From assembly GCF_003018255.1 (NCBI RefSeq), contig NZ_CP027440.1: a stretch of DNA of 64,000 nucleotides; one strand, given 5' to 3'. Of the stretch, positions 12,480-34,325 are shown one piece after another. The stretch comes from Escherichia coli (GTDB lineage Bacteria > Pseudomonadota > Gammaproteobacteria > Enterobacterales > Enterobacteriaceae). The first letter of the stretch is position 1. Each line of letters starts with the position of its first letter. Below the pieces are notes generated by a model, which did no database searches, was not told the DNA's origin, and saw only the letters and a program-made list of their open reading frames with translations. Both the position numbers and the translations under genes were made by a program.

Positions 12480-13730
12480 GTGATGACCGGAATCAAAATT
12501 ATGAGCAGAGCACTTAACAAACTGAGTGACACACAGCTAAGGAAAATCAACGGCACACCCGCCCAAAAAACAGCCTTTCTTAATGACGGTGGAAACCTGA
12601 GCGTCAGGCATTCAACCAGCGGCCTTTTAACCTGGTATTTCACATACAGGGCCGGAACGGGAAGAGGGACACAACCTGAACGCGTTAAGCTGGGAAATTA
12701 TCCCGATCTGAGCCTGAAAGCAGCCAGGGAAAAAGCCGCACAGTGTCGCGCATGGCTGGCTGAGGGGAAAAATCCACGCTATGAACTGAATTACACCATG
12801 CAGGAAGCGTTAAAGCCTGCAACGGTTGGCGATGCGCTCACCTACTGGCTTGAGTCGTACGCAAAGGAAAAGCGCACAGATTACGAATCACTGAAAAGCC
12901 GGATCAATAAAAACATAATCATCAAAATTGGTGCTATGCCGCTGGATAAATGCGAGCTACGGCACTGGCTGGCCTGTTTTGATCAGGTGGCAAAGCGAAC
13001 ACCTGTTACTGCCGGATTCTTGCTACAGACATGCAAACAGGCGCTTAAATTCTGCCGTAGGCGGCGCTATGCAATCAGCAACGTTCTGGACGATCTGAAC
13101 GTGGCGGACGTTGGGAAAAAACCGGATATAAGCGAACGTGTCTTAAGCACCAAAGAACTGGGCGAGTTATTGCAGGCGCTGGATAAAAAAATATTTTCTC
13201 CTTACTACGTCGCGTTAATCCGCCTCCTGATTGTCTTCGGAGCCAGGACGGTAGAACTGAGGTTATCGGAGATCAGCGAGTGGGATTTTACCGAAATGCT
13301 ATGGACCGTTCCGAAGGAGCACAGCAAAACGAAGGTTGCAATATTCCGGCCCATACCGGAAGCGATCCTGCCGTTCGTCACGCGGCTGGTGGAGCAGAAC
13401 AGGCACACGGGCTTATTACTGGGGGAAGTGAAACAGGAGGCTAGCGTATCGCAGTACGGCAGATTAGCGCACAGGAGGCTAAAACACCTTCAATGGTCAT
13501 TGCATGACATCCGGCGCACCTTTACAACGATGCTGAATGATTTGGGCGTGGATCCTCACGTCGTGGAGCAGCTTACAGGTCATCAGATGCCAGGGATGCA
13601 ACGAGTCTATAACCACTCCCGTTATCTCGATGCGAAACGTGATGCGCTGGATATGTGGACGGAGCGGTTAGGGATACTGGCGGGAGCACATGAAAACGTA
13701 ACCACGCTACCAGTAACCAGAATAAAATAA
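12480..13730 (+). CDS. int: Tyrosine recombinase / integrase (P4-like)
   Basis: 416-aa ORF abutting attL; C-terminal catalytic region (HDIRRTF...RYLD) typical of phage integrases. Confidence 0.85.
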   Translation: MMTGIKIMSRALNKLSDTQLRKINGTPAQKTAFLNDGGNLSVRHSTSGLLTWYFTYRAGTGRGTQPERVKLGNYPDLSLKAAREKAAQCRAWLAEGKNPRYELNYTMQEALKPATVGDALTYWLESYAKEKRTDYESLKSRINKNIIIKIGAMPLDKCELRHWLACFDQVAKRTPVTAGFLLQTCKQALKFCRRRRYAISNVLDDLNVADVGKKPDISERVLSTKELGELLQALDKKIFSPYYVALIRLLIVFGARTVELRLSEISEWDFTEMLWTVPKEHSKTKVAIFRPIPEAILPFVTRLVEQNRHTGLLLGEVKQEASVSQYGRLAHRRLKHLQWSLHDIRRTFTTMLNDLGVDPHVVEQLTGHQMPGMQRVYNHSRYLDAKRDALDMWTERLGILAGAHENVTTLPVTRIK

Positions 13731-14094
13731 TTTTTTTCGTGTTTTTTCAGTATGCGCATACTGGATAAGTGCACAGATACAACGTGAAACAATGTGCAAC
13801 AACGTGACACAATCATGAACAAGAGGCCAAAAAGAATACAGATTTATAAGTTACTGATTTTTATTGCTCAACTGGTTTTTTATACATTAGCGAATTACGC
13901 GTTAAAGCGTGCGAAAAAAGGCATAAAACAAGATTTTATGCCTTTGTATTAACATGAATTTAAATGATTTTATCCTGATTATTCCTCTTTCTGTAAACCA
14001 TACGACATCAACATTTGCCATTCACCACACTAGCGGGAACAATACGACACAATAAGACACCTGATGACTCTTTAAGAAACGAAAGGGGGCAATA

Positions 14095-14283
14095 GTGTTA
14101 AGCACTGATCGGTTTATACGTGAAAAAGAATGCGAAAAGCTAACAGGCCTTAGCCGCTCATGCCGCTACCGCCTGGAAAAGGCCGGACAATTCCCATCAC
14201 GTCGTAAACTTGGCGGGCGTTCTGTTGGCTGGTCTTTATCTGAGGTTTTGGCCTGGAAGGATAGCTGCAAGGCAGTTCACTAA
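14095..14283 (+). CDS. alpA: AlpA-family transcriptional regulator / excisionase-like protein
   Basis: 62-aa ORF (GTG start) with AlpA-type HTH signature LTGLSRS..Y.L...G.FP...LG.RSVGW..SEV..W. Confidence 0.7.
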   Translation: MLSTDRFIREKECEKLTGLSRSCRYRLEKAGQFPSRRKLGGRSVGWSLSEVLAWKDSCKAVH

Positions 14284-14423
14284 AAAGACTGGCGGCACAC
14301 AGTCGCCACACATCCACTAATACAGAGATATAACTATGAAGATTGAATATGCGCCCGAACGTGGGCGGGGATTCGTTCGCCCTGGTGAAACTGAAAAACA
14401 ACAAAATTGGGGTTTTTCAGGCA

Positions 14424-14453
14424 TAAAAAAAGCGGCCCCGATATGGAGCCGCC
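14424..14453 (-). terminator. Putative intrinsic terminator for the leftward RHH transcript
   Basis: Minus-strand hairpin GCGGC-11 nt-GCCGC followed by U7. Confidence 0.4.
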
Positions 14454-14781
14454 TTTCTGAACAATTAACCTGCTGCGCCTTATGTGTATGTGATCCCAAA
14501 CATAAGCACGGGGATGATAGCCGCTATCAGGCTGGTGGGCAATTCCTGTTTTGTCCGTATTGCGCCGCCATTTTCGCTCGTTCAGAGCGCGAATATTTTT
14601 TTAGAAACTCATCAAGGACAAAAGCGCATGGTGCGAATCTTTCTGATTCATGCTCGAGCGCCATATTTTCGTGCTCTCTGTTCGTTTTTTGCGATGGTGT
14701 ATCGCTTGATTCTTTGTTGGTCATTGTGTGTACCTGTAAAGCAATGCGCCGTAGTACCTCACACCACGGCGCTGATAGTTT

Positions 14782-14913
14782 TTATCCTTTGGGGTCTATG
14801 CCGCGCCGCTTTAGTTCAGTGCGCCCCAACTCTTTAAGCCAGTTGGCTAGGCTTATGCCGTCGCTCTGTGCTTCTTTGTCGAATTGCTCTTTTAGCTCTG
14901 GAGAAATTCGCAT
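14782..14913 (-). CDS. Small ribbon-helix-helix (CopG/Arc-like) DNA-binding protein, candidate satellite repressor
   Basis: MRISPELKEQFDKEAQSDGISLANWLKELGRTEL... within ORF 14782-15054; transcribed divergently from the early operon; start codon uncertain, weak RBS. Confidence 0.4.
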   Translation of the reverse strand: MRISPELKEQFDKEAQSDGISLANWLKELGRTELKRRGIDPKG

Positions 14914-14966
14914 TCTGAATTGTGGGGATTGCCCGTCCCCTTTAGGGCTTTTATCGCGTTTGATTG

Positions 14967-15017
14967 TTGACAAGTGGCCACCTATTAAATTAGCCTTTCT
15001 ATTGTTAGGTGGCCACC
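14967..15017. promoter_or_regulatory. Candidate operator/promoter region: two GTGGCCAC palindromes flanking a TTGACA
   Basis: TTGACA at 14967-14972; palindromes GTGGCCAC (14974-14981) and GGTGGCCACC (15008-15017), 34 bp apart, between the divergent RHH gene and the rightward early genes. Confidence 0.45.
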
Positions 15018-15030
15018 TTAACACAAGAGC

Positions 15031-15077
15031 ACTTAAAAAAGCAAAGCCCCGCAAGTGCCATTACCACTCGCAGGGCT
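15031..15077 (-). terminator. Minus-strand intrinsic terminator; candidate 3' end of an antisense RNA
   Basis: On the minus-strand RNA a 13-bp stem (agcccugcgagug / cacuugcggggcu, two G-U pairs) with a 7-nt loop is followed by UUGCUUUUUU; on the plus strand the same stem has two C-A mismatches. Confidence 0.45.
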
Positions 15078-15106
15078 TCTAACCAACAACGTAAACGAGG
15101 AGCCGT

Positions 15107-15308
15107 TATGGTTGCCGTAAATCATATACCACACCTTGTACACACACAAACTGCCTTTGTGTGGCGTTTTCTGGCCCTGAGTGCCGGAGAATCTCAAATC
15201 ATCCACGTAACCGCCTGGACGGAACGCGAAGCGCGTAACCGTTGCCCGTCCGGTTGTGTTGCTGTATTTGCCGCCCGTATTCGTCAGGGGGAAACCTATG
15301 CACAATAA
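15107..15308 (+). CDS. Small hypothetical protein, possibly Icd-like
   Basis: MVAVNHIPHLVHTQTAFVWRFLALSAGESQIIHVTAWTEREARNRCPSGCVAVFAARIRQ; the Icd-like assignment is by recalled similarity only. Confidence 0.35.
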
Positions 15309-15528
15309 AACCACACCGGACGCAGCAGAAGAAGCAATGCAAATACTGATACGTGCGCTCGTTGATGTTACCCACATGGTGGAGATTATGGAGAGAAAAT
15401 CACAGTCGGAGCACGACAAAAGAAAACTTAAAACAATAAAAATAATTGCCAAAAACTCGCTGATAAAAGTTACAGACATCCTTAATGAGGACATTAAAAG
15501 AATAAGGGAGAAAATTTGTGATGCATAA
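15298..15528 (+). CDS. Hypothetical small protein (AT-rich cargo gene 1)
   Basis: 76 aa from ATG 15298 (MHNKTTPDAAEEAMQ...); overlaps the next gene by 11 bp; locally AT-rich. Confidence 0.35.
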   Translation: MHNKTTPDAAEEAMQILIRALVDVTHMVEIMERKSQSEHDKRKLKTIKIIAKNSLIKVTDILNEDIKRIREKICDA

Positions 15529-15748
15529 AATCCCTTTTGAAGTATTAATCCACTCTGAAAACGCATTAATTAAAGCACGCGAAATGAATGCGTTGTTAAT
15601 TAAATTAATTGAAGTGCCGGAAGGTGGTGAGGAATCAGGTGTATTAATGTTTGCAGCCATTCAGACATTACTATCGCCTGTTATTGATGAACTGGATAAG
15701 GCAATGGCAATTCACGAAAATAATAACGCGCCCCACACCGGAGAATAA
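15518..15748 (+). CDS. Hypothetical small protein (AT-rich cargo gene 2)
   Basis: 76 aa; start overlaps the previous ORF, suggesting translational coupling. Confidence 0.35.
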   Translation: MMHKIPFEVLIHSENALIKAREMNALLIKLIEVPEGGEESGVLMFAAIQTLLSPVIDELDKAMAIHENNNAPHTGE

Positions 15749-15753
15749 AAATA

Positions 15754-16053
15754 ATGAAACTTAAATATTCTGGCTTAACTGCCAGTGGCAAAACTCGCAC
15801 TAAATTCATGCGCGGTGATATTTACCGCGACCAGTACGGCGGCACGGTAATGATTAAGGGCGTGGAGGAACGGCGCGTAACTTACCGCCGTGAAGGTTAC
15901 GAATATGATTGCGTGATGCCCGTTTATCAGTTCGACCGTGATTTTTCTCTGGTGCAGGCAGCGCAACGCAGCAAGCCCACCAGCAGGGAGAAAGCACGCG
16001 CCAATATTCAGGAAATAAAAAAGATGCTTAACGTATTCAGGGGTAAAAAATGA
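15754..16053 (+). CDS. Hypothetical protein
   Basis: 99-aa ORF whose stop overlaps the primase start (ATGA). Confidence 0.4.
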   Translation: MKLKYSGLTASGKTRTKFMRGDIYRDQYGGTVMIKGVEERRVTYRREGYEYDCVMPVYQFDRDFSLVQAAQRSKPTSREKARANIQEIKKMLNVFRGKK

Positions 16054-17804
16054 AACTGGCACCGAACGTAAAACAGCAGTCACGCGGCATAAAACACAAA
16101 GAAACAGAAGTCATTATTTTTGCGGGTAGTGATGCCTGGTCACACGCAAAACAATGGCAGGAACATGACGCGCGTATGGCCGGAGATAATGAGCCTCCTG
16201 TGTGGCTTGGGGAGCAGCAGTTATCAGAACTGGATAAGCTGCAAATTGTGCCGGAAGGCAGAAAATCCGTGCGCATATTCAGGGCCGGATATCTTGCACC
16301 AGTAATGATAAAGGCGATTGGTCAAAAGCTGGCGGCGGCTGGTGTACAGGATGCAAATTTTTATCCTGAGGGTATGCACGGCAAGGAGGTGCAGAACTGG
16401 CGCGAATACCTGGCCCGTGAACGCCAGAATCTTTCTGATGGTCTGGTCATTGAGCTTCCGGTAAAGCAAAAGGCGCAACTTTCGCAGATGGCGGACAGTG
16501 AGCGCGCGCAGCTGCTTGCCGATCGCTTTGATGGCGTTTGCGTACATCCTGAAAGTGAAATTGTTCACGTATGGCGCGGCGGGGTATGGTGTCCGGTCAG
16601 CACAATGGAACTTAGCCGCGAAATGGTGGCGATCTATTCAGAGCACAGGGCCACTTTCAGCAAGCGCGTAATCAATAACGCCGTGGAAGCGTTAAAAGTT
16701 ATTGCCGAACCAATGGGCGAGCCGTCCGGCGATTTGCTGCCGTTCGCCAATGGTGCGCTTGACCTGAAAACGGGGGAATTTTCCCCGCACACGCCGGAGA
16801 ACTGGATCACCACGCACAACGGCATTGAGTACACGCCACCAGCACCAGGGGAGAATATCCGCGACAACGCGCCAAACTTTCATAAATGGCTTGAGCACGC
16901 AGCCGGAAAAGACCCGCGCAAGATGATGCGTATATGTGCCGCGCTGTACATGATTATGGCGAACCGGTACGACTGGCAGATGTTTATTGAGGCCACCGGA
17001 GACGGCGGGAGCGGTAAAAGTACATTCACACACATAGCCAGCCTTCTGGCAGGGAAACAGAACACGGTAAGCGCTGAAATGACATCGCTTGATGATGCTG
17101 GTGGACGTGCGCAGGTTGTCGGGAGTCGTCTTATCGTCCTGGCTGACCAGCCGAAATATACAGGCGAAGGAACGGGCATCAAGAAAATCACGGGCGGCGA
17201 CCCCGTGGAAATTAACCCGAAATATGAGAAGCGTTTTACGGCGGTAATCAGGGCGGTGGTGCTGGCTACCAACAATAACCCGATGATATTCACCGAACGG
17301 GCCGGAGGTGTGTCACGTCGTCGCGTAATTTTCCGTTTCGACAATATCGTCAGTGAGGCCGAAAAAGACAGGGAGCTACCGGAAAAGATTGCGGCTGAAA
17401 TCCCTGTCATTATCCGCCGATTGCTGGCGAACTTTACCGACCCTGAGAAGGCACGGGCTTTACTACTGGAACAGCGTGACGGTGATGAAGCTCTGGCAAT
17501 AAAGCAACAGACGGATCCGGTTATTGAGTTTTGCCAGTTCCTGAATTTTCTGGAGGAAGCACGCGGCCTGATGATGGGCGGCGGTGGCGATTCAGTGAAG
17601 TACACGACCAGGAACAGCCTTTACCGCGTCTATCTGGCGTTTATGGCATACGCAGGCAGGAGCAAACCGCTAAACGTGGCTGAGTTCAGCAAGGCCATGA
17701 AGCCAGCGGCGAAAGTTTACGGGCATGAATATATTACGCGAAAAGTTAAGGGAGTAACGCAGACCAACGCAATTACAACAGACGATTGCGACGCGTTTTT
17801 ATAA
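16050..17804 (+). CDS. Replication protein: P4-family primase / D5-like SF3 helicase
   Basis: 584 aa with Walker A GDGGSGKST; domain architecture of satellite pri-rep proteins; iterons immediately downstream. Confidence 0.8.
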   Translation: MKLAPNVKQQSRGIKHKETEVIIFAGSDAWSHAKQWQEHDARMAGDNEPPVWLGEQQLSELDKLQIVPEGRKSVRIFRAGYLAPVMIKAIGQKLAAAGVQDANFYPEGMHGKEVQNWREYLARERQNLSDGLVIELPVKQKAQLSQMADSERAQLLADRFDGVCVHPESEIVHVWRGGVWCPVSTMELSREMVAIYSEHRATFSKRVINNAVEALKVIAEPMGEPSGDLLPFANGALDLKTGEFSPHTPENWITTHNGIEYTPPAPGENIRDNAPNFHKWLEHAAGKDPRKMMRICAALYMIMANRYDWQMFIEATGDGGSGKSTFTHIASLLAGKQNTVSAEMTSLDDAGGRAQVVGSRLIVLADQPKYTGEGTGIKKITGGDPVEINPKYEKRFTAVIRAVVLATNNNPMIFTERAGGVSRRRVIFRFDNIVSEAEKDRELPEKIAAEIPVIIRRLLANFTDPEKARALLLEQRDGDEALAIKQQTDPVIEFCQFLNFLEEARGLMMGGGGDSVKYTTRNSLYRVYLAFMAYAGRSKPLNVAEFSKAMKPAAKVYGHEYITRKVKGVTQTNAITTDDCDAFL

Positions 17805-17817
17805 TTTTTTGTAAAAG

Positions 17818-18044
17818 CCCTCTACCCCATCTACCTGAATGAAGTAAACGCATATTATTCAACATGATAAGTGGGTAGAGGGCTAGGTAGAAGGCTAATA
17901 AAAGCTCTCTACCCCTTCTACCTGATTTTATCAGTTTCAGGTAGCAGGGTAGACGGCAGGTAGAGGAGCCCAAAAAGCTATCTACCCGCTGAAAGCCGCG
18001 CCATTACTGACATGATGAGCATTCGGGTAGATGGGTAGAGGGGG
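17818..18044. repeat. Iteron-type replication origin
   Basis: At least 8 copies in both orientations of GGTAGA(G/T)GG / CC(C/T)CTACC with AT-rich spacers, directly after the primase-helicase gene. Confidence 0.6.
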
Positions 18045-18089
18045 GGGAGGCACAACTAAAAACTTTTTAAACGAGGGGGGGGAAAATAA

Positions 18090-18404
18090 ATGCGCATACA
18101 TCAAAATCACTTAACAAATATGCCAGCCGAAAACATGAATCAGGGGCGACAAATGACCAAAATTCGCAGAGACAGAACACAGGCAAAATATAAAGCGTTA
18201 GACATGACAGAGCTTTCCTTAAAGGTGGCAATCAAAGCGATAGACCACCACACACGGGCAGGATACGCGAAGGAACATCCCGACCTGATAAGCGCATTCA
18301 TGACCACGGCGGCGGCAAACTTTGCCACGTTGACAGAACGTGAGATTGCCGAAGCGGAACAGGTAACAACCATCAACGTTAAAACCGGAGAGGTGGAATC
18401 ATGA
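18090..18404 (+). CDS. Hypothetical protein
   Basis: 104-aa ORF; stop overlaps the ssb start (ATGA). Confidence 0.35.
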   Translation: MRIHQNHLTNMPAENMNQGRQMTKIRRDRTQAKYKALDMTELSLKVAIKAIDHHTRAGYAKEHPDLISAFMTTAAANFATLTEREIAEAEQVTTINVKTGEVES

Positions 18405-18811
18405 CAGCACAGATAGCCGCTTACGGGCGGCTGGTGGACGACCCGCAGGTAAAACAGACCAGCAAGGGCACACCGATGACGCTGGTTCGTATGGCGGTAT
18501 CGCTGCCATGCAGCCAGGCACATGACGGACAGGCGACGTTATGGTTATCGGTTATCGCATTTGGCAAACAGGCCGATTTCCTGGCTAAACATCAAAAAGG
18601 CGATGTTGCCAGCGTATCCGGCACGATGCAGGTAAGCCAGTGGACCGGACAGAACGGGGAAACGCGGCGGGGGTATCAGGTTATTGCAGACAGCGTAATC
18701 AGTGCCCGCGCGGCACGTCCAGGCGGGAACAGACGCAAAACCACAGGCACACAGGGTAATCAGCCACCAGCGGGAGGCGATGACCCTTACGGTGACGGTA
18801 TTCCGTTCTGA
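18401..18811 (+). CDS. ssb: Single-stranded DNA-binding protein
   Basis: 136 aa; Gly/Pro-rich linker and acidic C-terminal tail DDPYGDGIPF resembling the SSB D-I-P-F tip. Confidence 0.6.
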   Translation: MTAQIAAYGRLVDDPQVKQTSKGTPMTLVRMAVSLPCSQAHDGQATLWLSVIAFGKQADFLAKHQKGDVASVSGTMQVSQWTGQNGETRRGYQVIADSVISARAARPGGNRRKTTGTQGNQPPAGGDDPYGDGIPF

Positions 18812-18821
18812 GGGGGTGACG

Positions 18822-19070
18822 ATGGTACATGACCGCATAGCGGAGGAACTCGAGGCAAAAGGCTTTTACCGGAGGGCGTCGGCGCGATGGGGTGAAGTCA
18901 TGCAACTGGTGGAGACAGACAAGGAACGGCATCAGGTTACGATGCGACGGCTGGAATGTTCCAGGAAGGCACAGAGGCCACCGGAGCCGCCAACGGAGAA
19001 CTACGCAGACCTGAGAAATGCAGTAAATCGCACTTACGCAGACATGGGGCTGAGCAAATTAGCAGAGTAG
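18822..19070 (+). CDS. PerC-family transcriptional regulator (putative)
   Basis: MVHDRIAEELEAKGFYRRASARWGEVM... matches the PerC-type AEELE.KG.WRRA..RW motif; start chosen at ATG 18822. Confidence 0.45.
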   Translation: MVHDRIAEELEAKGFYRRASARWGEVMQLVETDKERHQVTMRRLECSRKAQRPPEPPTENYADLRNAVNRTYADMGLSKLAE

Positions 19071-19092
19071 GAATATCAGAACCACACCACGC

Positions 19093-19125
19093 AGCCGGAG
19101 CAATCCGGCTTTTTGTTATTTTTTG
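19093..19125 (+). terminator. Intrinsic terminator after the PerC-like gene
   Basis: Hairpin agccgga-gcaa-tccggct followed by TTTTTGTTATTTTTT. Confidence 0.55.
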
Positions 19126-19336
19126 TAAATTATTTGTTCGTGGTTGTTCCACGTTGTTCACTGAGCGGATCGGCATATTTTACCCGAACTGAATCATGAT
19201 TATTCTCGCCCGTGGTGCCAGGACGCTGGGGCCACTTTCCCGCCTGTTAATGTGCTCGCCAATATTCATTACCAGGCGGGAAAACGATCGGTGCGATTGC
19301 TGATTTCCTTATGAAAAACGGTTGAGTGTTTGCCGC

Positions 19337-19374
19337 GTCCTGGAGTTCCTTACTTAACCCCAGGACTTTTTTTT
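19337..19374 (+). promoter_or_regulatory. Hairpin plus T8 tract abutting the capsid start codon
   Basis: 7-bp stem gtcctgg/ccaggac (16-nt loop) followed by eight T that run directly into ATG 19375; no SD sequence. Confidence 0.4.
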
Positions 19375-20532
19375 ATGCCGAGAATAATCGAATTACGCCA
19401 GCAGAAAACCGCCATTAAAAATCAGATGCGCGACATGCTGGAGAACGCTGAAAAAGAAAACCGCAGTCTTAACGATGCTGAGGGCGCAAAATTTGACGAA
19501 TTACGCGCTAAAGCTGAATCCCTCGATAAAGACATTTCCCGCCTTGAAGCCATTGCAGACGAAGAGCGCAGCAAGCCAGGTAAAAGCAGCCAGACCACTG
19601 ACCCCGCAGAACTACGCAGCTACATTCTGACAGGTGAAACCCGCGCATTAAGTACAGGCGTTCCCGCTGATGGTGGTTATACCGTTATCCCCGAACTGAA
19701 CACCGAAATCATGCGAATGCTGGCGGATGAATCCACCATGCGCCGCATCTGTACCGTGAAAAAAATCAGCAGCAACGAGTTTAAGCAGCTTGTTTCCGCT
19801 GGCGGTGCGACCGTTAACCACGGTGAAGAGGGTAAGGCACGCGAACAGACCAGCACCCCGCAGATTAACGAGGTGAGCATTAAGCTGTATCCGGTCTATG
19901 CGTACCCGCGCACCACACAGGAAATCGTGGATTTTTCCGATGTGGACATCCTTTCATGGCTGACGGGTGAGATTGGCGACACCTTCACGGAAACCGAAGA
20001 AAGCGATCTGGTTGTGGGCGACGGTGACAAAAAAGCAAAAGGTTTTTTATCCGTACCCCGTGCAGAGAAGAACGACAAAGAGCGTGATTTTGGTACGTTG
20101 CAGGTAATTAAACCTTCCGAATCTCTGGCGTGGACATCTGCGGACCCGCTGATCGACCTGAAATTTGCATTACGTAAAAAATACCGCAAAAACGCGGTCT
20201 GGGTGGTTAACTCCACGACGGCGGCAAAACTCCAGAAGGTGAAGAACGCGAACGGTGATTACATCTGGCGTGACCGTTTACAGGCGGGTGATCCTGATAC
20301 GTTGCTGGGCCTTCCGGTCGAATATCTGGAGTTTATGCCTGATAACGTTATTGCCCTGGGTGACTTCAAACGCGGTTACTACATTGTTGATCACGAAACA
20401 GGTGTTCGCACCAGACCGGACAACCTCACAGAGCCGGGCTTCATCAAAATTTTCACGCAGAAATATTTAGGCGGTGGCGTGGTGGATTCGAACGCGATCA
20501 AGATTCTGGAACTGCCACAGGACGACGATTAA
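19375..20532 (+). CDS. Major capsid protein (HK97 fold) with N-terminal coiled-coil scaffold-like region
   Basis: ORF 19330-20532 (TTG) trimmed to ATG 19375 (MPRIIELRQQKTAIKNQ...). Confidence 0.8.
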   Translation: MPRIIELRQQKTAIKNQMRDMLENAEKENRSLNDAEGAKFDELRAKAESLDKDISRLEAIADEERSKPGKSSQTTDPAELRSYILTGETRALSTGVPADGGYTVIPELNTEIMRMLADESTMRRICTVKKISSNEFKQLVSAGGATVNHGEEGKAREQTSTPQINEVSIKLYPVYAYPRTTQEIVDFSDVDILSWLTGEIGDTFTETEESDLVVGDGDKKAKGFLSVPRAEKNDKERDFGTLQVIKPSESLAWTSADPLIDLKFALRKKYRKNAVWVVNSTTAAKLQKVKNANGDYIWRDRLQAGDPDTLLGLPVEYLEFMPDNVIALGDFKRGYYIVDHETGVRTRPDNLTEPGFIKIFTQKYLGGGVVDSNAIKILELPQDDD

Positions 20533-20543
20533 CAGCATACAGA

Positions 20544-20571
20544 AGGGGCTTAAAAGCCCCTTTAGTGTTTT
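20544..20571 (+). terminator. Putative terminator between capsid and protease genes
   Basis: Hairpin aggggctt-aa-aagcccct followed by TTAGTGTTTT. Confidence 0.45.
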
Positions 20572-21144
20572 ATGGGTGAAAAAATTATGAAGAGTATGGA
20601 AATCCGGTCATCGGAAATCACCACCAGCGGAGCCGGTACGCTGACGGGCTACGTTGTTCGCTGGGATAAGCTTTCAGAACTGTTATGGGGTGAGTTTTAC
20701 GAAAAATTCCAGCGGGGGGCGTTTACTGAATGGCTTGCGGCGGGTAATGACGTTCGCGGCCTGTATGAGCATGACCACAGCATGTTACTGGGGCGCACCC
20801 GTTCCGGCACGCTGAAACTGGAAGAGGACGAAACAGGGTTACGCTTTGAACTGACCCCACCGGATACCAGTACAGGGCGCGACGTTATCGAACTGGTTAA
20901 GCGTGGGGACATCTCGGGGATGAGCTTTGGCTTTCGCTCCCGTAAGGATGTATGGGATACCACAACAGATCCATGCGTGCGCACCGTGCTGGTGGCGGAA
21001 CTGTACGAAATTACCGTTACATCGGTACCGGCTTACCCCGATTCCGGCGTGGAGCTGGCCCGCCGTTCCCTGTATGAGCAGCACCCCGAAAAAATGCCGC
21101 GTGCGGATAATCGCCGCTGGTGGGTGGATTTAGCGGGGGTGTGA
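20572..21144 (+). CDS. Prohead maturation protease (HK97 family)
   Basis: 190-aa ORF following the capsid gene; length and position fit a prohead protease. Confidence 0.75.
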   Translation: MGEKIMKSMEIRSSEITTSGAGTLTGYVVRWDKLSELLWGEFYEKFQRGAFTEWLAAGNDVRGLYEHDHSMLLGRTRSGTLKLEEDETGLRFELTPPDTSTGRDVIELVKRGDISGMSFGFRSRKDVWDTTTDPCVRTVLVAELYEITVTSVPAYPDSGVELARRSLYEQHPEKMPRADNRRWWVDLAGV

Positions 21145-21145
21145 T

Positions 21146-22357
21146 ATGTGGCCTTTCAGAAGAAAAAAAGAGCAGCGCAGCATGACGCTTGATAAGTTTA
21201 TGGCGCTGGCTGGCACATCGAACACGGGGGCGGGTGAGTACGTATCATCGGGGACAGCGGAATCACTGCCCGCCGTCATGAACGCCGTGACGGTCATCTC
21301 TGAGGCGGTGGCTACCATGCCGTGTTACCTGTACCTGGTACGCAATGAGAAGGGGAAGGAGGCCCGCGAGTGGCTTGATTCTCATCCGGTCGATCACATC
21401 CTCAACGAGCGCCCGAACGCGTGGCAGACTCCCTACCAGTTTAAGCGAATGATGATCCGCCACTGCCTGTTAAACGGTAATGCTTATGCGGTGATTCAGT
21501 GGGGGCGTGATGGTTTTCCGGTGGCTTTACATCCTTACCCGCCGCAGTCGGTGAACGTGGAGCAGACAGGTGATCATAACTGGCGCTACTGCATCACTGA
21601 CGCCTACACCGGAAACACCCGCAACTATTTACCGTGGGAGGTTCTCCACCTTCGTTACTCCACGGATGACGGTTTTATGGGGCGCTCACCTGTAACCATC
21701 TGCCGCGAATCGCTGGGGCTTGGGCTGGCCCAACAACGCCACGGCGCGAGCGTGATGCGTGATGGCATGATGGCGGCAGGGGTTATCACGTCAGGCGAAT
21801 GGCTGGACGGCGTGAAGGGCAAACAGGCATTAGCCGCACTGGAACGCTACAAAGGGGCCAGAAACGCCGGAAAAACGCCCATCCTTGAAGGGGGGATGAG
21901 CTATCAGCAGCTGGGCATGAGTAATCAGGATGCCGAATGGCTGGCCTCCCGTCGCTTCACCATTGAAGACATCGCCCGAATGTTCAACGTCTCGCCGATT
22001 TTTTTGCAGGAATACAGCAACAGCACCTACAGCAACTTCAGCGAGGCAAGCCGCGCATTTCTCACCATGACGATGCGCCCGTGGCTGGCGAACTTTGAGC
22101 AGCAGATAAAAAACGCCCTGCTGGTGGCCTCGCCTGTACCTGGTATCCGGTATCAGGTGGAGTTTGACAGCGCGGACCTGTTACGGGCCACACCTGGCGA
22201 ACGCTTTGCCACCTATGAACGCGGCATCAAATCCGGCGTTATGTGCCCGAACGAAGCCCGCGAACGTGAAGGGCTGTCCCCGCGTGATGGTGGTGATGAG
22301 TTCAGCCAGGCATGGAAACAGGAAGTAAAAATCAGCGAGGGAGAAAAACCGGAATGA
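21146..22357 (+). CDS. Portal protein
   Basis: 403-aa ORF in the head module; portal-like by length and position. Confidence 0.8.
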   Translation: MWPFRRKKEQRSMTLDKFMALAGTSNTGAGEYVSSGTAESLPAVMNAVTVISEAVATMPCYLYLVRNEKGKEAREWLDSHPVDHILNERPNAWQTPYQFKRMMIRHCLLNGNAYAVIQWGRDGFPVALHPYPPQSVNVEQTGDHNWRYCITDAYTGNTRNYLPWEVLHLRYSTDDGFMGRSPVTICRESLGLGLAQQRHGASVMRDGMMAAGVITSGEWLDGVKGKQALAALERYKGARNAGKTPILEGGMSYQQLGMSNQDAEWLASRRFTIEDIARMFNVSPIFLQEYSNSTYSNFSEASRAFLTMTMRPWLANFEQQIKNALLVASPVPGIRYQVEFDSADLLRATPGERFATYERGIKSGVMCPNEAREREGLSPRDGGDEFSQAWKQEVKISEGEKPE

Positions 22358-22692
22358 ACATAGGGCGACTGCGTGACAGGATAACGATTCAGACCCTGAA
22401 ACAGACCAGGGATATAACCGGCGAAATACTCGAAACGTGGGAGGACGGTCACACACTCTGGGCAAGCGTGAACATGGTCAGCAGCAAGGAGGCCATTTCA
22501 TCGGGCGCAGAGCTGGCGATTGGTACCGTAAGGATCTGGATACGGTACCGGAAGGACATCAACGCCACCTGCCGGATAAAGGTCAGTACGGGGCCGCTGG
22601 CGGGGCGTGTACTGAATATCATCGGGCAGCCGCTGCCGGATGCCGCCAGGACACGCCTTGAAATTCTTTGTCGTGAGGGCGCGGAAAAATGA
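22354..22692 (+). CDS. Head-tail adaptor / head closure protein
   Basis: ATG 22354 overlaps the portal stop (ATGA); MNIGRLRDRITIQ... Confidence 0.55.
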   Translation: MNIGRLRDRITIQTLKQTRDITGEILETWEDGHTLWASVNMVSSKEAISSGAELAIGTVRIWIRYRKDINATCRIKVSTGPLAGRVLNIIGQPLPDAARTRLEILCREGAEK

Positions 22693-22985
22693 CAGAAGAA
22701 CTTATCACCCTGGAAGAAGTGAAACTCCATTGCCGCATCGATGGCGACGATGAAGACCAGTTAATCAGCGGATACATTGCCGCATCGCTTGAGGCGTGCC
22801 AGATACACATAGGCAGGCGCTTTGATGACGGGCTGGAGTTCACGCCAGCCATAAAGATTGGCTGCATGATGTTTATCGCTCACCTGTATGAAAATCGCCA
22901 GATTGTCGCGGATAACGCAAAAACACGCGTACCCATGACGATAGGCGCACTCTGGACGGCTTACCGTGATGTGGGGGTGTACTGA
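22689..22985 (+). CDS. Head-tail connector (gp6-like)
   Basis: 98 aa; overlapping stop/start with neighbours on both sides. Confidence 0.55.
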   Translation: MTEELITLEEVKLHCRIDGDDEDQLISGYIAASLEACQIHIGRRFDDGLEFTPAIKIGCMMFIAHLYENRQIVADNAKTRVPMTIGALWTAYRDVGVY

Positions 22986-23425
22986 TGCCGTGGCAACCAT
23001 TAAGACGATGCACAGAACCAGGCTGTAACAGGCGCGTTAAATCCGGCAAGTGTGAGGAGCACAGGCGGGCGGCATGGCGTGCAGAGGATGCCAGACGAGG
23101 ACACCGCCGCGCGCGTGGATATTCCAGACAGTGGGACAAATACCGCGCCATGTATCTGAGTAAAAACCCGTTATGCGTGCGATGCCTTGAGAAGGGGATA
23201 TATACGCCCGCCGTGGTGGTGGATCACATTATCCCGATTAATGGCGGTGATGATGTTCTCTTCTGGCCCGAATGGAACCATCAACCATTGTGCCAGGCGT
23301 GTCATAACCAGAAAACGAAATGGCTTGATCCGGCAACAAAAAGCAAGCGTGCCGCAGGTGGATTTCGTGAAGAGGAAGAACGGGCTGCTAACCGCAATAA
23401 CTGGATGTATGACGCTGATGAATGA
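22985..23425 (+). CDS. HNH endonuclease (packaging-associated)
   Basis: Cys-rich zinc-finger and HNH motifs (CVRCLEKG...VDHIIPINGG...CQACHNQKT); sits upstream of terS/terL as in cos-packaging HK97-like systems. Confidence 0.8.
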   Translation: MPWQPLRRCTEPGCNRRVKSGKCEEHRRAAWRAEDARRGHRRARGYSRQWDKYRAMYLSKNPLCVRCLEKGIYTPAVVVDHIIPINGGDDVLFWPEWNHQPLCQACHNQKTKWLDPATKSKRAAGGFREEEERAANRNNWMYDADE

Positions 23426-23591
23426 GCGGGAACAAAACCGCCTTATCCGTGGACTTATAAGGCAGCGTGACGCATGGAAGACACAGGAAACAGGGCATAA
23501 AGATAAAGCGTCAGGACGCGCAGAACGCATCACAGCGAAGCGATTAACCGACCGTGACCGCGAGGTTATGGAATGTTTCCGCAATCGCTGA
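23420..23591 (+). CDS. Hypothetical small protein
   Basis: 57-aa reading frame MNEREQNRLIRGLIRQRDAWK... between HNH and terS; may not be expressed. Confidence 0.25.
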
Positions 23592-23713
23592 TGAGGCTGT
23601 ATGACGGGGTGGGGGGCGTTTTCAGGACAAACCCGACCCCGCCGGGCACCGAACGCCTCCTCAAATTTTTATGCACGGGAATTTTTTGAAAAATAATCTG
23701 GCGAAAAATAAGC

Positions 23714-24070
23714 ATGGCAAGACCACCGAAAGCCCCCGCCTACCTGGATGATATCGCCGTGAAGCAGTGGCGGGAAAAATCTAGGCAGCTTGCGGAACGG
23801 GGAGACCTGACCCCCGCCGACTGGAGCAATCTGGAACTGTATTGTGTCAACTACTCCATTTACCGGAAAGCCGTTGCAGACCTTGCGGCGCGCGGGTTCA
23901 GCATTGTTAACAGTCAGGGCGGCGAGAGCAGAAACCCCGCATTAAGCGCAAAATCCGACGCTGAAAGAGTGATGATAAAAATGGCCTCTTTGCTCGGTTT
24001 TGACCCGATAAGCCGCCGTAAAAATCCACCGGAAACAGAAGAAGAGGACGAGCTTGACCGCCTGGAATAA
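23714..24070 (+). CDS. terS: Terminase small subunit (P27 family)
   Basis: 118 aa, MARPPKAPAYLDDIAVKQWRE...; overlaps the terL start. Confidence 0.75.
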   Translation: MARPPKAPAYLDDIAVKQWREKSRQLAERGDLTPADWSNLELYCVNYSIYRKAVADLAARGFSIVNSQGGESRNPALSAKSDAERVMIKMASLLGFDPISRRKNPPETEEEDELDRLE

Positions 24071-25715
24071 GTACGCAGAAGACGTAAAAACGGGCAAAAT
24101 TCCGGCCTGTAAACGGCTGAAACAGGCCGTTAAACGGTACTTTTCGGACCTTGAAAGCCCCCTTTACACGTTCGATCGTGAGGTTGTGGAGCGGTTTATT
24201 GCCTTTTCCAGGGTGTGCCCGCACGTAAAAGGGCCGATGCGTGGCAGACCCATTGAGCTGGAGCCGTGGCAGCAGTTCGCCTTTGCGTGCATCCTCGGCT
24301 TTAAGGTTAAGGCCACCGGACGGCGCAAATACACGAGCGCCTTTATCGAAGTGCCGCGCAAAAATGCGAAATCCACGACCGCCGCGATTCTGGCTAACTG
24401 GTTTCTGATTATGGAGAACGGGCAGCAGGATATTTACACCGCAGCGGTGAGCCGTGACCAGGCGCGGATCGTTTTTGATGATGCGCGTCAGATGTGCCTT
24501 TTATCCCGACCGTTACGCAGGCGGGTGAATATTCAGGCCCACAAGGTGATGCACCCGAAAAGCAACAGCCTGTTAAAGCCGCTGGCAGCAAAAGCGGCAA
24601 CCATCGAGGGAACAAACCCCAGCCTTTCCATCGTGGACGAATACCACCTACACCCCGATAACGGCGTTTATTCCGCGCTTGAGCTGGGGATGGGCGCACG
24701 TCCCGAAGGGCTGTTATTTGCCATTACCACATCGGGCAGTAACGTCGTTTCAACCTGTAAACAGCACTATGATTATTGCTGCCAGATCCTGGACGGCGAA
24801 GAGGTCAACGATTCAATTTTTGTGCTGATTTACGAGCTGGACGACGAAAACGAGGTTGATGATCCGGCGATGTGGATAAAGGCTAACCCTAACATCGATG
24901 TTTCCGTGGATCGTGAAAAACTGGCCTCAACCATCCAGAAAGCGCGGGGTATTCCGTCGCAATGGGTGGAGATGATGACAAAGCGATTTAATATCTGGTG
25001 CCAGGGGGCTACCCCGTGGATGGGTAACGGCGCATGGGCTGAGTGTGCCGGAACGTTCACGGAGGAAGATTTACACGGGCAGGAGTGTTACGCGGGGCTG
25101 GACTTATCATCAACCAGCGATATTTCCAGCGTGTGCTATGCCTTTCCGGTCGGTAAAAATATCATGCTGGTTTCCCGTCATTATCTGCCGGAGTTCCAGC
25201 TACAGAACCCCGCCAATAAAAACCGCGCTGTCTATCGCCAGTGGGCTAAAGCGGGCTGGATACGCACAACGCCAGGTGACTGCATTGATTACGACCGGAT
25301 CAGAGATGACATCATGCAGGATGCGGAGAAATTTAATATCAGGCTGGTGGGCTTTGATACGTGGAACGCCACGCATCTCAGGACGCAATTACAGGGGGCT
25401 GGTTTTGAGGTGGAGCCGTTCCCGCAAACCTACCTCAGATTCAGTCCGGCGGCGAAATCGTTCGAAGTTTTTGTTAACCGCAGGGTGATTGTGCATCGTG
25501 GCGATCCGGTGTTGTCCTGGTCGATGAGTAACGTCGTGATGCAGAGTGACGCGAACGCCAATATCAAGCCGAACAAGAAAAAATCACCGAACAAGATAGA
25601 CCCGAGCGTAGCGGCGCTGATGGCGTTTGGTACATTCCAGGCAGAGCATGAGGATTTTGCTTTTGATATAAGCGACAGCCACCGCCAGAAACTGGAAGAA
25701 TTTAGCGGGGTGTAA
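24054..25715 (+). CDS. terL: Terminase large subunit
   Basis: 553 aa with ATPase and nuclease regions; final large gene before attR. Confidence 0.85.
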   Translation: MTAWNKYAEDVKTGKIPACKRLKQAVKRYFSDLESPLYTFDREVVERFIAFSRVCPHVKGPMRGRPIELEPWQQFAFACILGFKVKATGRRKYTSAFIEVPRKNAKSTTAAILANWFLIMENGQQDIYTAAVSRDQARIVFDDARQMCLLSRPLRRRVNIQAHKVMHPKSNSLLKPLAAKAATIEGTNPSLSIVDEYHLHPDNGVYSALELGMGARPEGLLFAITTSGSNVVSTCKQHYDYCCQILDGEEVNDSIFVLIYELDDENEVDDPAMWIKANPNIDVSVDREKLASTIQKARGIPSQWVEMMTKRFNIWCQGATPWMGNGAWAECAGTFTEEDLHGQECYAGLDLSSTSDISSVCYAFPVGKNIMLVSRHYLPEFQLQNPANKNRAVYRQWAKAGWIRTTPGDCIDYDRIRDDIMQDAEKFNIRLVGFDTWNATHLRTQLQGAGFEVEPFPQTYLRFSPAAKSFEVFVNRRVIVHRGDPVLSWSMSNVVMQSDANANIKPNKKKSPNKIDPSVAALMAFGTFQAEHEDFAFDISDSHRQKLEEFSGV

Positions 25716-25728
25716 TGAGGTCAGCAGC

Positions 25729-26010
25729 ATGACAGAAGCCGAAATACTGCGATTAATCCGCCGCGTCTCTGGAATCAGCCAGCAGGCTGACGAACAGACC
25801 ACGCAGCCGGACAGCGTGACAGCCGAAAATTATGCGCGTGTTGTTGCTGAGGTGATGCGCCGTGATGGTATCCAGCTTAATGATGCGGATATGCGCGACA
25901 TACGGATCCGCGTTCTTGAAATGCTGGCCTACAATCGCCGTGTAGAGATGTACAGGGAGAAAGAGAAAATTACGTACAACTGGAAGAAGCCGGAGCGGTT
26001 ACGGCGGTAA
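25729..26010 (+). CDS. Hypothetical protein
   Basis: 93-aa ORF after terL. Confidence 0.4.
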   Translation: MTEAEILRLIRRVSGISQQADEQTTQPDSVTAENYARVVAEVMRRDGIQLNDADMRDIRIRVLEMLAYNRRVEMYREKEKITYNWKKPERLRR

Positions 26011-26012
26011 CG

Positions 26013-26413: not shown

Positions 26414-26439
26414 CGGTGTAGTTAATGGTGTAGTCAATT
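26414..26439. repeat. attR core of the satellite
   Basis: Identical 26-mer to 12454-12479. Confidence 0.8.

Positions 26440-33836: not shown

Positions 33837-34325
<489 letters not shown>

Follow-up and report, generated by a model that had tools for sequence, protein, structure and literature searches.

How does a phage satellite that builds its own capsids control its capsid gene? The question is raised by a 64,000-nt stretch of Escherichia coli DNA (contig NZ_CP027440.1, hereafter the window), in which a major capsid gene is bracketed by terminator-like hairpins and preceded directly by a run of eight T. The gene belongs to an island of ~14.2 kb (~12327-26513) with the gene order int, alpA, primase, ssb, perC, then capsid through terL, which is that of a capsid-forming PICI (cf-PICI) of the EcCIEDL933 type. 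Such islands are defined by int, alpA and pri-rep followed by capsid, protease, portal, connectors, HNH, terS and terL, by the absence of tail and lysis genes and by a size of ~10-15 kb. Only recently recognised as satellites, cf-PICIs make capsids of their own and rely on borrowed tails to move from one species to another. In the cf-PICI literature that we searched, we found no description of the switch-on of the head and packaging operon or of helper-free capsid leakage. We propose that positions 19093-20573 form the control region of this operon in an EcCIEDL933-like cf-PICI, with a terminator (T1), a promoter, a leader switch and a leaky hairpin (H3). Taken as a whole, this model seems to us to stand an even chance of being right. 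All genes and features described between 18822 and 21144 lie on the plus strand unless stated otherwise.

The flanking genes can be assigned by homology. The variable region that precedes the head operon ends with a PerC-family gene (18822-19070; Pfam PerC PF06069, E 1.1e-35), also annotated by PGAP in a 96%-identical copy. The HK97-family major capsid gene (TIGR01554, E 3.3e-86) occupies 19375-20532; PGAP calls the same ATG in the 96%-identical copy, and the motif M-x-x-[IL]-[IL]-E-L-R-Q-Q from this ATG onward is common to five clades. An upstream in-frame TTG (19330) was rejected as capsid start because a T7/T8 length polymorphism among related copies would shift the frame and because homology starts at the ATG. 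The HK97 prohead protease gene follows (TIGR01543, E 3.8e-53; 20574-21144 including its Shine-Dalgarno (SD) sequence GGGTGA at 20574-20579). Its start is most likely 20587 and not the ATG at 20572, based on this SD and on the PGAP start in a related locus (L001). A GG(A/G)-rich box is conserved 3′ of H3 in all clades. The stretch upstream of the capsid gene that we describe below as its leader is 98.4% identical in the window to the leader of the listed O157:H7 genomes.

Transcription arriving from the early, replication and perC genes would be stopped at T1 (19093-19125), which would insulate the head operon. T1 has the canonical form of an intrinsic terminator: the stem AGCCGGA-GCAA-TCCGGCT (19093-19110; 7 bp, 4-nt loop, dG -12.0 kcal/mol) is followed by TTTTGTTATTTTTTG at 19111-19125. 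It is retained downstream of three different upstream sequences, and in two loci (L013 and L056) its position is held by a non-homologous terminator, AGCCCTGG-TTTAA-CCAGGGCT followed by T7. Two further hairpins, H2 and H3, lie directly before and directly after the capsid gene. The GC-rich stem (~5-14 bp) and short loop of intrinsic terminators are found in T1, H2 and H3, and the U-tract in T1 (TTTTGTTATTTTTTG) and H2 (T8); the tract of H3 is interrupted, and so weaker. All three hairpins that the preliminary description had seen around the capsid gene are present at the positions given there, including a canonical terminator after the PerC-like gene at 19093-19125. A generic terminator scan yielded no overall enrichment (21 found vs 15.6 +/- 3.9 expected), so the case for function rests on conservation and not on counts. 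We consider it supported that the capsid gene is punctuated by terminator-like signals under selection.

Downstream of the T1 stem, four TTGT(A/T) repeats phased by ~10 bp, among them TTTGTAAATTAT, span 19122-19159 (~-90 to -54 from the predicted transcript start). The pattern TTGTTN5TTGTTN5TTGT has 7 matches at 4 loci in the window (0.04 expected), all of them inside the island: 12412-12445, 13779-13822 (minus strand), 19134-19157 and 26372-26395. Phased TTGTT arrays are found at both island ends, beside alpA and upstream of the head operon. In an independent cf-PICI, the regulator gene is likewise preceded by phased arrays, and the capsid leader contains phased repeats of a similar kind. The motif TTTGTAAATTAT is common to all clades; it occurs only once in the window, which excludes that it is shared with the alpA promoter. 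We consider the array a candidate target of a Xis/AlpA-type (or Int-arm) protein encoded by the island. Most likely it is bound by the island's AlpA, a Xis/Vis-like master activator, and Int could bind it instead.

AlpA is known as a DNA-binding autoactivator related to P4 Vis and as the master regulator of PICI genes; the helper acts upstream of it by switching on alpA. The AlpA of this island is a 62-aa Phage_AlpA helix-turn-helix (HTH) protein of the Xis type, and its sole significant match among solved structures is the AlpA-family phage regulatory protein 8c3t. A search of ncbifam gave no match for AlpA, PerC or a 104-aa ORF.

The array is followed by a predicted weak sigma-70 promoter (19179-19206), consisting of a -35-like TTTACC (19179-19184), a 16-nt spacer and the -10 element TATTCT (19201-19206). 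The evidence for it is comparative. A TATnnT box is located exactly 5 nt upstream of P1, the first hairpin of the leader, in 33/33 distinct contexts (90 loci), against a background of 0.0096 per position, while the middle of the hexamer and the spacer vary among contexts. Based on the phased array and on this fixed distance, we predict a local promoter with a transcript start at ~19212. A generic sigma-70 consensus scan found no strong promoter in the perC-capsid spacer, and the -35 of the predicted promoter is poor; the promoter is therefore probably activator-dependent. Both its activity and the binding of AlpA to the array are what we infer from this arrangement. A weak promoter preceded by the TTGTT array would begin a new transcript at ~19212, and since the -10 box and the regulator array lie inside the perC-capsid spacer, read-through from upstream is probably unnecessary.

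This transcript would open with a leader of ~163 nt containing the hairpins P1, P2, P3 and H2. P1 (19212-19235; GTGGTG-CCAG-GACG-CTGG-GGCCAC) lies at or <=2 nt from the predicted transcript 5′ end. Compared with the near-invariant P1 of the majority-type leader (GTGGCACTCAGACGTGAGCCGCCAC), the P1 of the window has the same GACG loop and outer stem, and three inner pairs are changed on both sides; in L138 and L141, the closing pair is changed from G-C to A-U. P2 (19236-19283, dG -23.3) is a long hairpin with a perfect 11-bp stem, TTTCCCGCCTG/CAGGCGGGAAA. The sequence of its stem is different in nearly every clade yet remains complementary: both sides changed in 6/8 scored pairs, and C-to-U variants face G. 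P3 (19286-19305) is a small hairpin specific to the window-type leader, predicted in all folds and without comparative support outside the window lineage. The last helix of this conserved structured leader is H2 with its T8. Across clades, P2 and the linkers diverge freely, and hardly any change is seen in P1 or in the 5′ arm of the last hairpin.

The leader folds with a z-score of -5.06. In the majority-type alignment, 92.9% of cells pair compared to 37-48% when the partners are slid, and the observed covariation was reached by 0/500 shuffles. The leader family is conserved in cf-PICIs of many Enterobacterales. The majority-type covariance model matches the window only at 19212-19313 (19.2 bits, E 7.7e-4), and Rfam 15 has nothing better than E ~1 in 19000-20700 and no match to the leader at gathering thresholds. 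Among 50,697 phage records, we found no match to the window-type leader, and the majority-type leader matches only cf-PICI-like ‘induced prophage’ entries. In the cf-PICI relatives of Photorhabdus and in L139, L140 and L142, P1 to P4 (P4 being the position of H2) are entirely absent, and the leader is thus dispensable in some lineages.

Other functions for the leader were considered and set aside. A 10-codon ORF overlaps P1 or ends inside it in some leaders; its ATG is missing in many others, for which reason attenuation by a leader peptide was not favoured. The leader is not the cos site: the packaged cf-PICI genome LR881103.1 starts 22 nt before terS, which places cos between HNH and terS. 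A replication origin is unlikely as well, with the iterons of LR881103.1 (GTGAACAC repeats) located directly 3′ of the primase gene, apart from the capsid leader.

H2 and its T-run (19335-19374) combine several signals within 40 nt. The hairpin (19337-19366) has the form GTCCTGG...CCAGGAC, with 7 bp, a 1x1 mismatch, 3 bp and an 8-nt loop (dG -12.7), and is missed by a consensus terminator scan because its stem is interrupted. It is followed by T8 (19367-19374) and by the capsid ATG at 19375, so that the hairpin and eight T do run straight into the start codon, as first described. The same description held that this leaves no SD. An AGGA is in fact present at 19362-19365, 9 nt before the ATG; since it lies inside the 3′ arm of H2 and pairs with the anti-SD at only -4.0 kcal/mol, the SD is weak and sequestered but not absent. 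H2 with its T8 is a putative leader attenuator, a hairpin that sequesters the ribosome binding site (RBS), or both.

The conservation of the hairpin and that of the T-run differ in scope. Runs of at least eight T are rare, with two on the plus strand in 64 kb, and the length is not fixed at eight, related copies having T7 in 31 cases and T8 in 11. Only the E. coli lineage has the T-run; in most relatives the last hairpin still adjoins the AUG without a U-run, and termination therefore cannot be the family-wide function of this helix. In the E. coli lineage, the U-run may serve translation instead. A/U-rich tracts are known to stimulate translation via protein S1 and without regard to the SD, and here a U8 lies directly 5′ of the AUG beside a weak AGGA (-4.0 kcal/mol), a possible role being that of an enhancer of this type. 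Among 38 copies, the 5′ arm of H2 shows no change and all variation falls in the loop or the 3′ arm. Stem-weakening changes in the 3′ arm, which speak against the model, are carried by a few natural copies (L019, L032 and L046). In L013, the stem is retained (9 bp) with a completely different loop.

The 5′ side of H2 (19335-19343, GCGTCCTGG) has two possible partners, its own 3′ arm and the P1 segment CCAGGACGC (19218-19226). The alternative helix, 19218-19226 with 19335-19343, comprises 9 bp at -17.1 kcal/mol, compared to -11.3 for the H2 stem. It thereby uses one arm of the terminator-like hairpin, as the antiterminator helix of an attenuator does, and it covaries: CCAGGACGC:GCGTCCTGG in one version and AGACGTGA:TCACGTCT in the other occupy equivalent positions, over 9 nt in the window type and 8 nt in the majority type. 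Complementarity of this extent was reached by 6-8/2000 shuffles of the window, L013 and L145 representatives. There are only two independent sequence versions of the long-range pairing, and a search for a third in Salmonella, Xenorhabdus, Photorhabdus and Proteus returned the majority type or a short leader only.

In predicted nascent folds, the P1:H2 helix has a probability of 0.83-0.97, which drops to 0 once the 3′ arm of H2 is made; 11/13 leaders examined behave in the same way. At equilibrium, the state with P1 and H2 is favoured by ~11 kcal/mol in the full-length leader. P1 forms first, and consequently it would depend on kinetics whether the alternative helix arises in vivo at all. As predicted, the arrangement of H2 and P1 is that of an attenuator. 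Attenuation at H2 is plausible, given the perfect U-run and the covarying alternative pairing able to block the hairpin.

According to this model, the 5′ arm of H2 paired with its own 3′ arm would give a terminator-like hairpin followed by U7-8, with the weak SD buried; paired with the P1 segment, it would leave the 3′ arm, the SD and the AUG free. The P1:H2 helix would dominate the nascent RNA until the 3′ arm of H2 is transcribed. The choice between stop and read-through, and between a closed and an open RBS, would thus be made kinetically and could be tuned by whatever stabilises or opens P1. We found no Rfam riboswitch match in the leader as the input that chooses between the states. The analysis demonstrates the sequence features, the way they are conserved and covary, and their predicted energetics; both the trigger of the switch and actual termination at the hairpins are inferred.

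On the other side of the capsid gene, 10 nt after its stop codon, H3 (20542-20573) has the GC-rich core GGGGC/GCCCC. The hairpin (20542-20563; 9 pairs, 4-nt loop, dG -13.8) is followed by AGTGTTTTAT, an interrupted tail of the form TTT-AGTG-TTTTAT, so that the third hairpin with a T-rich tail reported between capsid and protease is confirmed. H3 takes the form GGGGC-loop-GCCCC in 57/94 loci, with five different loops, and in nearly all the remaining loci it is replaced by other GC hairpins with T-runs of unrelated sequence. A GC hairpin with a T-rich tail is accordingly found 3′ of the capsid stop codon in nearly all of the 94 loci. H3 is probably a partial or leaky terminator, a 3′ stabiliser of the capsid message, or both. 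A leaky H3 would raise the capsid message above that of protease, portal and terminase. The earlier suggestion that attenuation sets capsid stoichiometry is to this extent reasonable for a leaky stop after the capsid gene, given its conservation over the 94 loci, and plausible for H2; its other part, a factor supplied by the helper, is not supported. It has been published that tail-less cf-PICI capsids are made without a helper phage and that EcCIEDL933 makes capsids without helper induction, which contradicts a dependence of head-gene expression on such a factor.

Antitermination was among the mechanisms suggested in the preliminary description. Worked out as a rival to our model, it implies that the spacer has no promoter, and polymerase from the alpA promoter crosses T1, H2 and H3 with the help of a Q or N factor of the helper or of a put-like RNA formed by P1 and P2. 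The spacer indeed has no strong sigma-70 match, three terminator-like signals precede or interrupt an operon with essential downstream genes, and transcription of Gram-negative PICIs is described as unidirectional and rightward. P1 and P2, a pair of neighbouring stem-loops close to where the leader begins, loosely resemble the put RNA of HK022. Against these points stand the capsids formed without helper phage, a conserved -10 box whose distance from P1 does not vary and which is preceded by a regulator array, and a terminator conserved in varied sequence guises, which fits insulation and not obligatory read-through. Neither a Q- nor an N-like gene is annotated in the island (PGAP of the 96%-identical copy). 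A protein-mediated mechanism could otherwise have been sought in AlpA, the P. aeruginosa antiterminator of this name being an eight-helix, 21Q-like protein; the PICI AlpA, a Xis-type HTH, is unrelated to it and not Q-like. We consider processive antitermination unlikely. More credible, and still a minority possibility in our view, is a purely translational role, in which H2 never terminates and only hides the weak SD, U7-8 serves as S1-binding enhancer or spacer, and pairing with P1 opens the RBS. All clades have a weak SD (-3 to -4 kcal/mol), the AGGA is at a workable 8-9 nt from the AUG, A/U-rich tracts can act through S1 without an SD, and the homologous hairpin adjoins the AUG without a U-run in most relatives. 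Nevertheless, a 7-bp GC-rich stem abutting U7-8 is the textbook geometry of an intrinsic terminator, and hairpin and U-run are kept between two sublineages whose leaders are 75% identical and whose loops are different. Many leader terminators also hide an SD, and the translational and the attenuation readings are compatible.

Ordinary punctuation without any switch is improbable. T1 and H3 would then be plain terminators or stabilisers, the leader hairpins would protect the 5′ end of the mRNA and the P1:H2 complementarity would have no role. The equilibrium fold of the full leader, P1+P2+P3+H2, agrees with such a view, as do the lineages that lack the leader; a 5′-terminal hairpin like P1 is a known stabiliser of mRNA. 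However, the two leader versions show the complementarity at the same positions, each with its own sequence, and a generic stabiliser would not require P1 and the 5′ arm of the last hairpin to be so nearly invariant. The repeats of the leader could also act as DNA, being operators for a DNA-binding protein instead of RNA pairing partners: CCAGGAC(GC) occurs three times in the leader, at 19218 (plus), 19335 (inverted) and 19360 (plus), GACGTG/CACGTC occurs twice in the majority-type leader, and inverted sites for a single protein would likewise ‘covary’ from lineage to lineage. We regard this as very improbable, since changes compatible with G-U pairing occur (C-to-U opposite G in P2, A-to-G in the P1 loop of L138, U-G pairs in P1), the P2 stems of different clades have entirely different sequences and carry loops from 11 to 43 nt long, and CCAGGAC(GC) is not enriched elsewhere in the island.

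The leader switch that we favour has counterparts in known systems. Like the B. subtilis pyr (PyrR) and trp (TRAP) and the E. coli bgl attenuators, the cf-PICI leader would be promoter-proximal and, in the window, places a hairpin with a U-run directly ahead of the first gene; a stronger partner for one arm of this terminator-like hairpin, the 5′ one, lies upstream and is itself held in a hairpin (here P1), and the predicted nascent folds behave as a kinetic switch. Unlike these attenuators, the leader mostly has no U-run across the family and has no Rfam match. Because most members have no U-run, the shared output of the leader family is more likely RBS access than termination. A hairpin with U8 before the start codon recalls E. 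coli rnd, encoding RNase D, for which Zhang and Deutscher are said to have described in 1989 a terminator-like hairpin followed by U8 that is needed for translation. The capsid leader likewise has a hairpin and then about eight U directly before a start codon poorly endowed with an SD; it differs in that H2 contains the SD and has a covarying alternative partner, and there is no sequence relationship.

For the array, the closest analogy is with P4 Vis and P2 Cox, Xis-type proteins that act on phased direct repeats at att and promoters, in systems with activator-dependent late promoters (P_LL, P_sid). In the PICI, AlpA is homologous to Vis and works as an activator, the phased arrays lie at the island ends, at alpA and at the head operon, and the -35 of the predicted late promoter is poor. 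In contrast, the candidate PICI repeat consensus TTGTT(T/C)CACG differs from Cox boxes, and P4 has no capsid gene. As in lambda pR′-tR′ (6S RNA) with Q and in HK022 put, a late operon would start with a short leader ending in a putative intrinsic terminator; here the island lacks a Q gene, the helper is dispensable, no similarity is detectable, and the proposed bypass is an intramolecular alternative helix instead of a modified polymerase. H3 resembles T-phi of T7 after gene 10, a hairpin with a U-rich tail directly after the most-needed structural gene that raises the dose of capsid message. The cf-PICI is transcribed by host RNA polymerase and not by T7 polymerase, and its capsid gene is the first of the operon. 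With essential genes downstream, a terminator after the capsid gene must be leaky.

More tentatively, and with doubts of our own, we suggest that the spacer encodes a previously undescribed, satellite-specific family of riboregulators, the ‘cf-PICI capsid leader’, in which P1 is promoter-proximal and nearly invariant, P2 covaries freely, the 5′ arm of the start-proximal hairpin toggles between P1 and its own 3′ arm, and P1 serves as the docking site of a conserved factor. An unassembled head protein, or some other protein of the island, might for instance be this factor, and its binding to P1 would set co-transcriptionally whether the head operon is terminated or closed, or else read through and translated. 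If true, this mechanism would set the number of capsids per cf-PICI and would account for the spontaneous, helper-independent formation of tail-less capsids.

The locus provides parts that can be tested separately: an AlpA-type operator array, a promoter and a transcript start, all three predicted, a conserved structured leader with a covarying two-state pairing and a conserved, probably leaky stop after the capsid gene. Should the switch prove not to be real, the region would be a clean example of terminators partitioning a satellite into modules. If it is real, the leader would represent a new family of cis-regulatory RNAs for phage-satellite biology, and it would offer a handle on capsid output in engineered PICI delivery vehicles.

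An EcCIEDL933-like capsid-forming PICI (cf-PICI, a phage satellite) occupies positions ~12327-26513 of the window, with the gene order integrase, alpA, primase, ssb, perC, HK97-type capsid, protease, portal, connectors, HNH, terS and terL. The alpA and perC products match the Pfam families Phage_AlpA (5.6e-18) and PerC (1.1e-35). About 360 E. coli genomes, O157:H7 among them, carry the perC-capsid spacer, which is absent from true phages: the matches in phage records are cf-PICI-like 'induced prophage' records only. In the annotated 96%-identical copy (L001), the AI-2 transporter gene tqsA flanks the island as two pseudogene fragments (594-1499 and 16727-16870), indicating that integration inactivates tqsA. 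A match to the enterobacterial sRNA STnc480 (84 bits, 11470-11536) lies just upstream of the insertion site. Elsewhere in the window are four tandem copies of naRNA4 (CssrE, a REP-derived nucleoid-associated RNA), 100 bp apart at 33892-34269 and all above the Rfam gathering score, and a tRNA-Arg (anticodon tct) at 40825-40901.

Sequence and folding energies place three hairpins, all on the plus strand, where the preliminary description had put them. T1, after perC, has the stem AGCCGGA-GCAA-TCCGGCT (19093-19110, dG -12.0 kcal/mol) followed by TTTTGTTATTTTTTG, in form a textbook intrinsic terminator. H2, before the capsid gene, is GTCCTGG...CCAGGAC (19337-19366), with 7 bp, a 1x1 mismatch, 3 more pairs and an 8-nt loop (dG -12.7). 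H3, after the capsid stop, has the core GGGGC/GCCCC (20542-20563, dG -13.8) and an interrupted T-rich tail. The eight T described between H2 and the capsid ATG (plus strand, 19367-19374) are present in the window, but their number is not fixed among related copies, 31 having T7 and 11 having T8.

The capsid ATG at 19375 is the start called by PGAP in the 96%-identical copy, and the N-terminus beginning at its methionine is common to five clades; as judged from sequence, this start is sound. The capsid gene had been thought to have no SD. Instead, AGGA is found at 19362-19365, 9 nt before the ATG and within the H2 3′ arm. Its spacing is correct though its pairing is weak (-4.0 kcal/mol), which makes for a weak, sequestered SD rather than an absent one. 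The T7/T8 variation (19367-19374 and loci L014-L060) shifts the SD-to-AUG spacing from 8 to 9 nt. Several capsid homologues from Salmonella and metagenomes (P0010, P0013, P0019, P0024 and others) are annotated ~18-20 residues longer (403-405 aa); here gene callers may have picked an upstream start, the true one being without SD. For the protease, the most likely start is 20587, preceded by GGGTGA, rather than 20572.

In close relatives the same T1 hairpin is joined to three different upstream sequences, and in two related loci (L013/L056) its position is taken by an unrelated terminator, AGCCCTGG-TTTAA-CCAGGGCT plus T7. The leader that follows exists in two sequence versions, the window type and the majority type, and in the latter a terminator-like hairpin likewise stands ahead of the leader core. 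A terminator before the head operon is therefore under selection, whatever its sequence, and T1 is predicted to act as an insulator of that operon. At the other end, a GC hairpin with a T-rich tail directly follows the capsid stop in nearly all of the 94 loci with a complete capsid gene. It has the GGGGC-loop-GCCCC form in 57 of them, with five different loops; most others carry unrelated stems, such as GGAGGCC-TTCG-GGCCTCC+T5 and GAAGCGTTCCTG...CAGGAGCGCTT+T5. Phages similarly have terminators behind major capsid genes. The genes downstream of H3 are reported to be essential for transfer and show no other evident promoter, so this hairpin must be leaky; it is predicted to be a partial terminator and/or 3′ stabiliser that increases the amount of capsid transcript relative to protease and portal transcript. 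The terminators on either side of the capsid gene are ordinary punctuation of an operon.

H2 itself reads as the final helix in a leader whose structure is conserved. The perC-capsid spacer folds far better than its shuffles (z = -5.06), and the same order of elements recurs in about 25 clusters from Escherichia, Citrobacter, Salmonella, Erwinia, Proteus and Xenorhabdus: a -10 box, the near-invariant hairpin P1 (GTGGCACTCAGACGTGAGCCGCCAC), the long hairpin P2, a pyrimidine-rich linker and hairpin P4 (H2 in the window), ending 4-5 nt before the AUG. The P2 stem differs in almost every clade with its complementarity kept. In the majority-type alignment 92.9% of cells pair, compared to 37-48% with the partners slid, six of the eight P2 pairs are altered on both sides, and none of 500 shuffles reached this level of covariation. 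P1 of the window (19212-19235, plus strand, GTGGTG-CCAG-GACG-CTGG-GGCCAC) keeps the loop and outer stem and differs in three inner pairs, each altered on both sides. When a covariance model was made from the majority type alone, it had a single match in the 64-kb window, at 19212-19313 (19.2 bits, E about 8e-4); no Rfam family matches the leader. Capsid homologues also occur in Morganella and Photorhabdus. Some relatives, Photorhabdus (L152) and L139, L140 and L142, have a short leader without P1-P4; it is ~35-45 nt long, A/C-rich and without SD, and keeps the TTTGTAAAT motif, a terminator-like hairpin and an AT-rich box.

In 33 of 33 distinct contexts (90 loci) a TATnnT box precedes the first leader hairpin by exactly 5 nt, against a background of ~1% per position. 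The hexamer's middle positions and the spacer are free to vary, as they would be around a -10 element. The predicted promoter of the window (plus strand) has the -10 TATTCT at 19201-19206 and a poor -35, TTTACC, at a 16-nt spacing, pointing to an activator-dependent promoter with a start at ~19212; a generic promoter scan requiring 9/12 matches found none in the spacer. A short ORF runs from the -10 region through P1 in several leaders (L002, L118, L138, L141, L143, L144, L147). It encodes MYILISGTQT-stop in the majority type, with the UGA inside P1, and 36 codons beginning MIIL in the window (19196-19306). Since its ATG is missing from many leaders, a leader peptide is improbable.

Upstream of this promoter, at 19134-19157 (plus strand), lies a TTGTT array. 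Against an expectation of 0.04 for the window, the pattern TTGTT-N5-TTGTT-N5-TTGT is found at four loci (7 matches), all within the island. The others are ~90 bp inside the left end (12412-12445, plus), in the int-alpA spacer (13779-13822, minus, five repeats) and ~130 bp inside the right end (26372-26395, plus). The repeats, TTGTT(T/C)CACG, are 10-bp-phased and island-specific. Xis/Cox/Vis-type proteins (P2 Cox, P4 Vis) bind phased direct repeats at both att arms and promoters. PICI AlpA is described as homologous to Vis and as a DNA-binding autoactivator that serves as master regulator of PICI genes. The arrays are likely candidates for AlpA/Xis-type or Int-arm binding sites. In an independent packaged cf-PICI genome (LR881103.1), phased arrays likewise precede the regulator gene, and the capsid leader contains phased repeats of a similar kind.

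Within the leader, CCAGGACGC in P1 (19218-19226) is perfectly complementary to GCGTCCTGG (19335-19343), the H2 5′ arm plus two bases; the H2 3′ arm, CCAGGAC, duplicates the P1 segment. The majority type has AGACGTGA and TCACGTCT at the same relative positions, and in both types one segment lies 6-9 nt into P1, its partner ending 28-31 nt ahead of the ATG. For the window, L013 and L145 representatives, each match was equalled in only 6-8 of 2000 shuffles. The alternative duplex is predicted at -17.1 kcal/mol versus -11.3 for the H2 stem, while in the full leader the P1+H2 state is favoured by about 11 kcal/mol. In nascent-RNA folds at successive lengths, the alternative helix has a probability of 0.83-0.97 with the 3′ end at 19343-19356, when the H2 3′ arm is not yet made, and ~0 once that arm exists. 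Eleven of 13 leaders, drawn from both versions, show this rise followed by collapse. Among 38 window-type copies, P1 and the H2 5′ arm are invariant, all H2 variation falls in the loop or 3′ arm, and P2 changes are C-to-U opposite G, as expected if two RNA partners share one arm. The full-length L013 RNA is predicted to be bistable (0.61). In a Salmonella leader (L149), which has a single A-to-C in P1, the predicted minimum-energy fold of the entire leader is the long-range P1:P4 helix.

This geometry, with its covarying alternative pairing, makes the attenuation proposed in the preliminary description plausible, the mechanism being a prediction. P1 would act as anti-antiterminator, P1 paired with the H2 5′ arm as antiterminator and H2 with its U7-8 as terminator; H2 would also bury the capsid SD. 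Since most relatives have the homologous hairpin without a U-run behind it, access to the RBS is the more likely output across the family. By comparison among relatives, the U-run is an addition of the E. coli lineage, where it may terminate, serve as an S1-type translational enhancer, as reported for the rnd leader, or both.

The proposed dependence on a helper factor is not borne out: tail-less cf-PICI capsids are reported from a host that is not a lysogen, EcCIEDL933 is reported to form capsids when no helper is induced, and the reported role of the helper is induction of alpA. Protein-mediated antitermination has no candidate. PICI AlpA has nothing but the name in common with the Q-like AlpA of P. 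aeruginosa. The leader was also considered as cos and rejected, as the packaged cf-PICI genome starts at terS. In an independent cf-PICI (L148, 11700-11960), GTGAACAC/GTGTTCAC iterons flank an AT-rich stretch immediately behind the primase gene. This corresponds to the replication origin expected of a PICI and is separate from the capsid leader.

The arrangement first noticed around the capsid gene is real, and it is beyond chance because it is conserved, not because of its counts. The structured leader, joining a fixed-distance -10 box, an upstream regulator array and a covarying two-state pairing, appears to be undescribed. It is best filed with the leader-attenuator / RBS-switch kind, every mechanistic step being a prediction.
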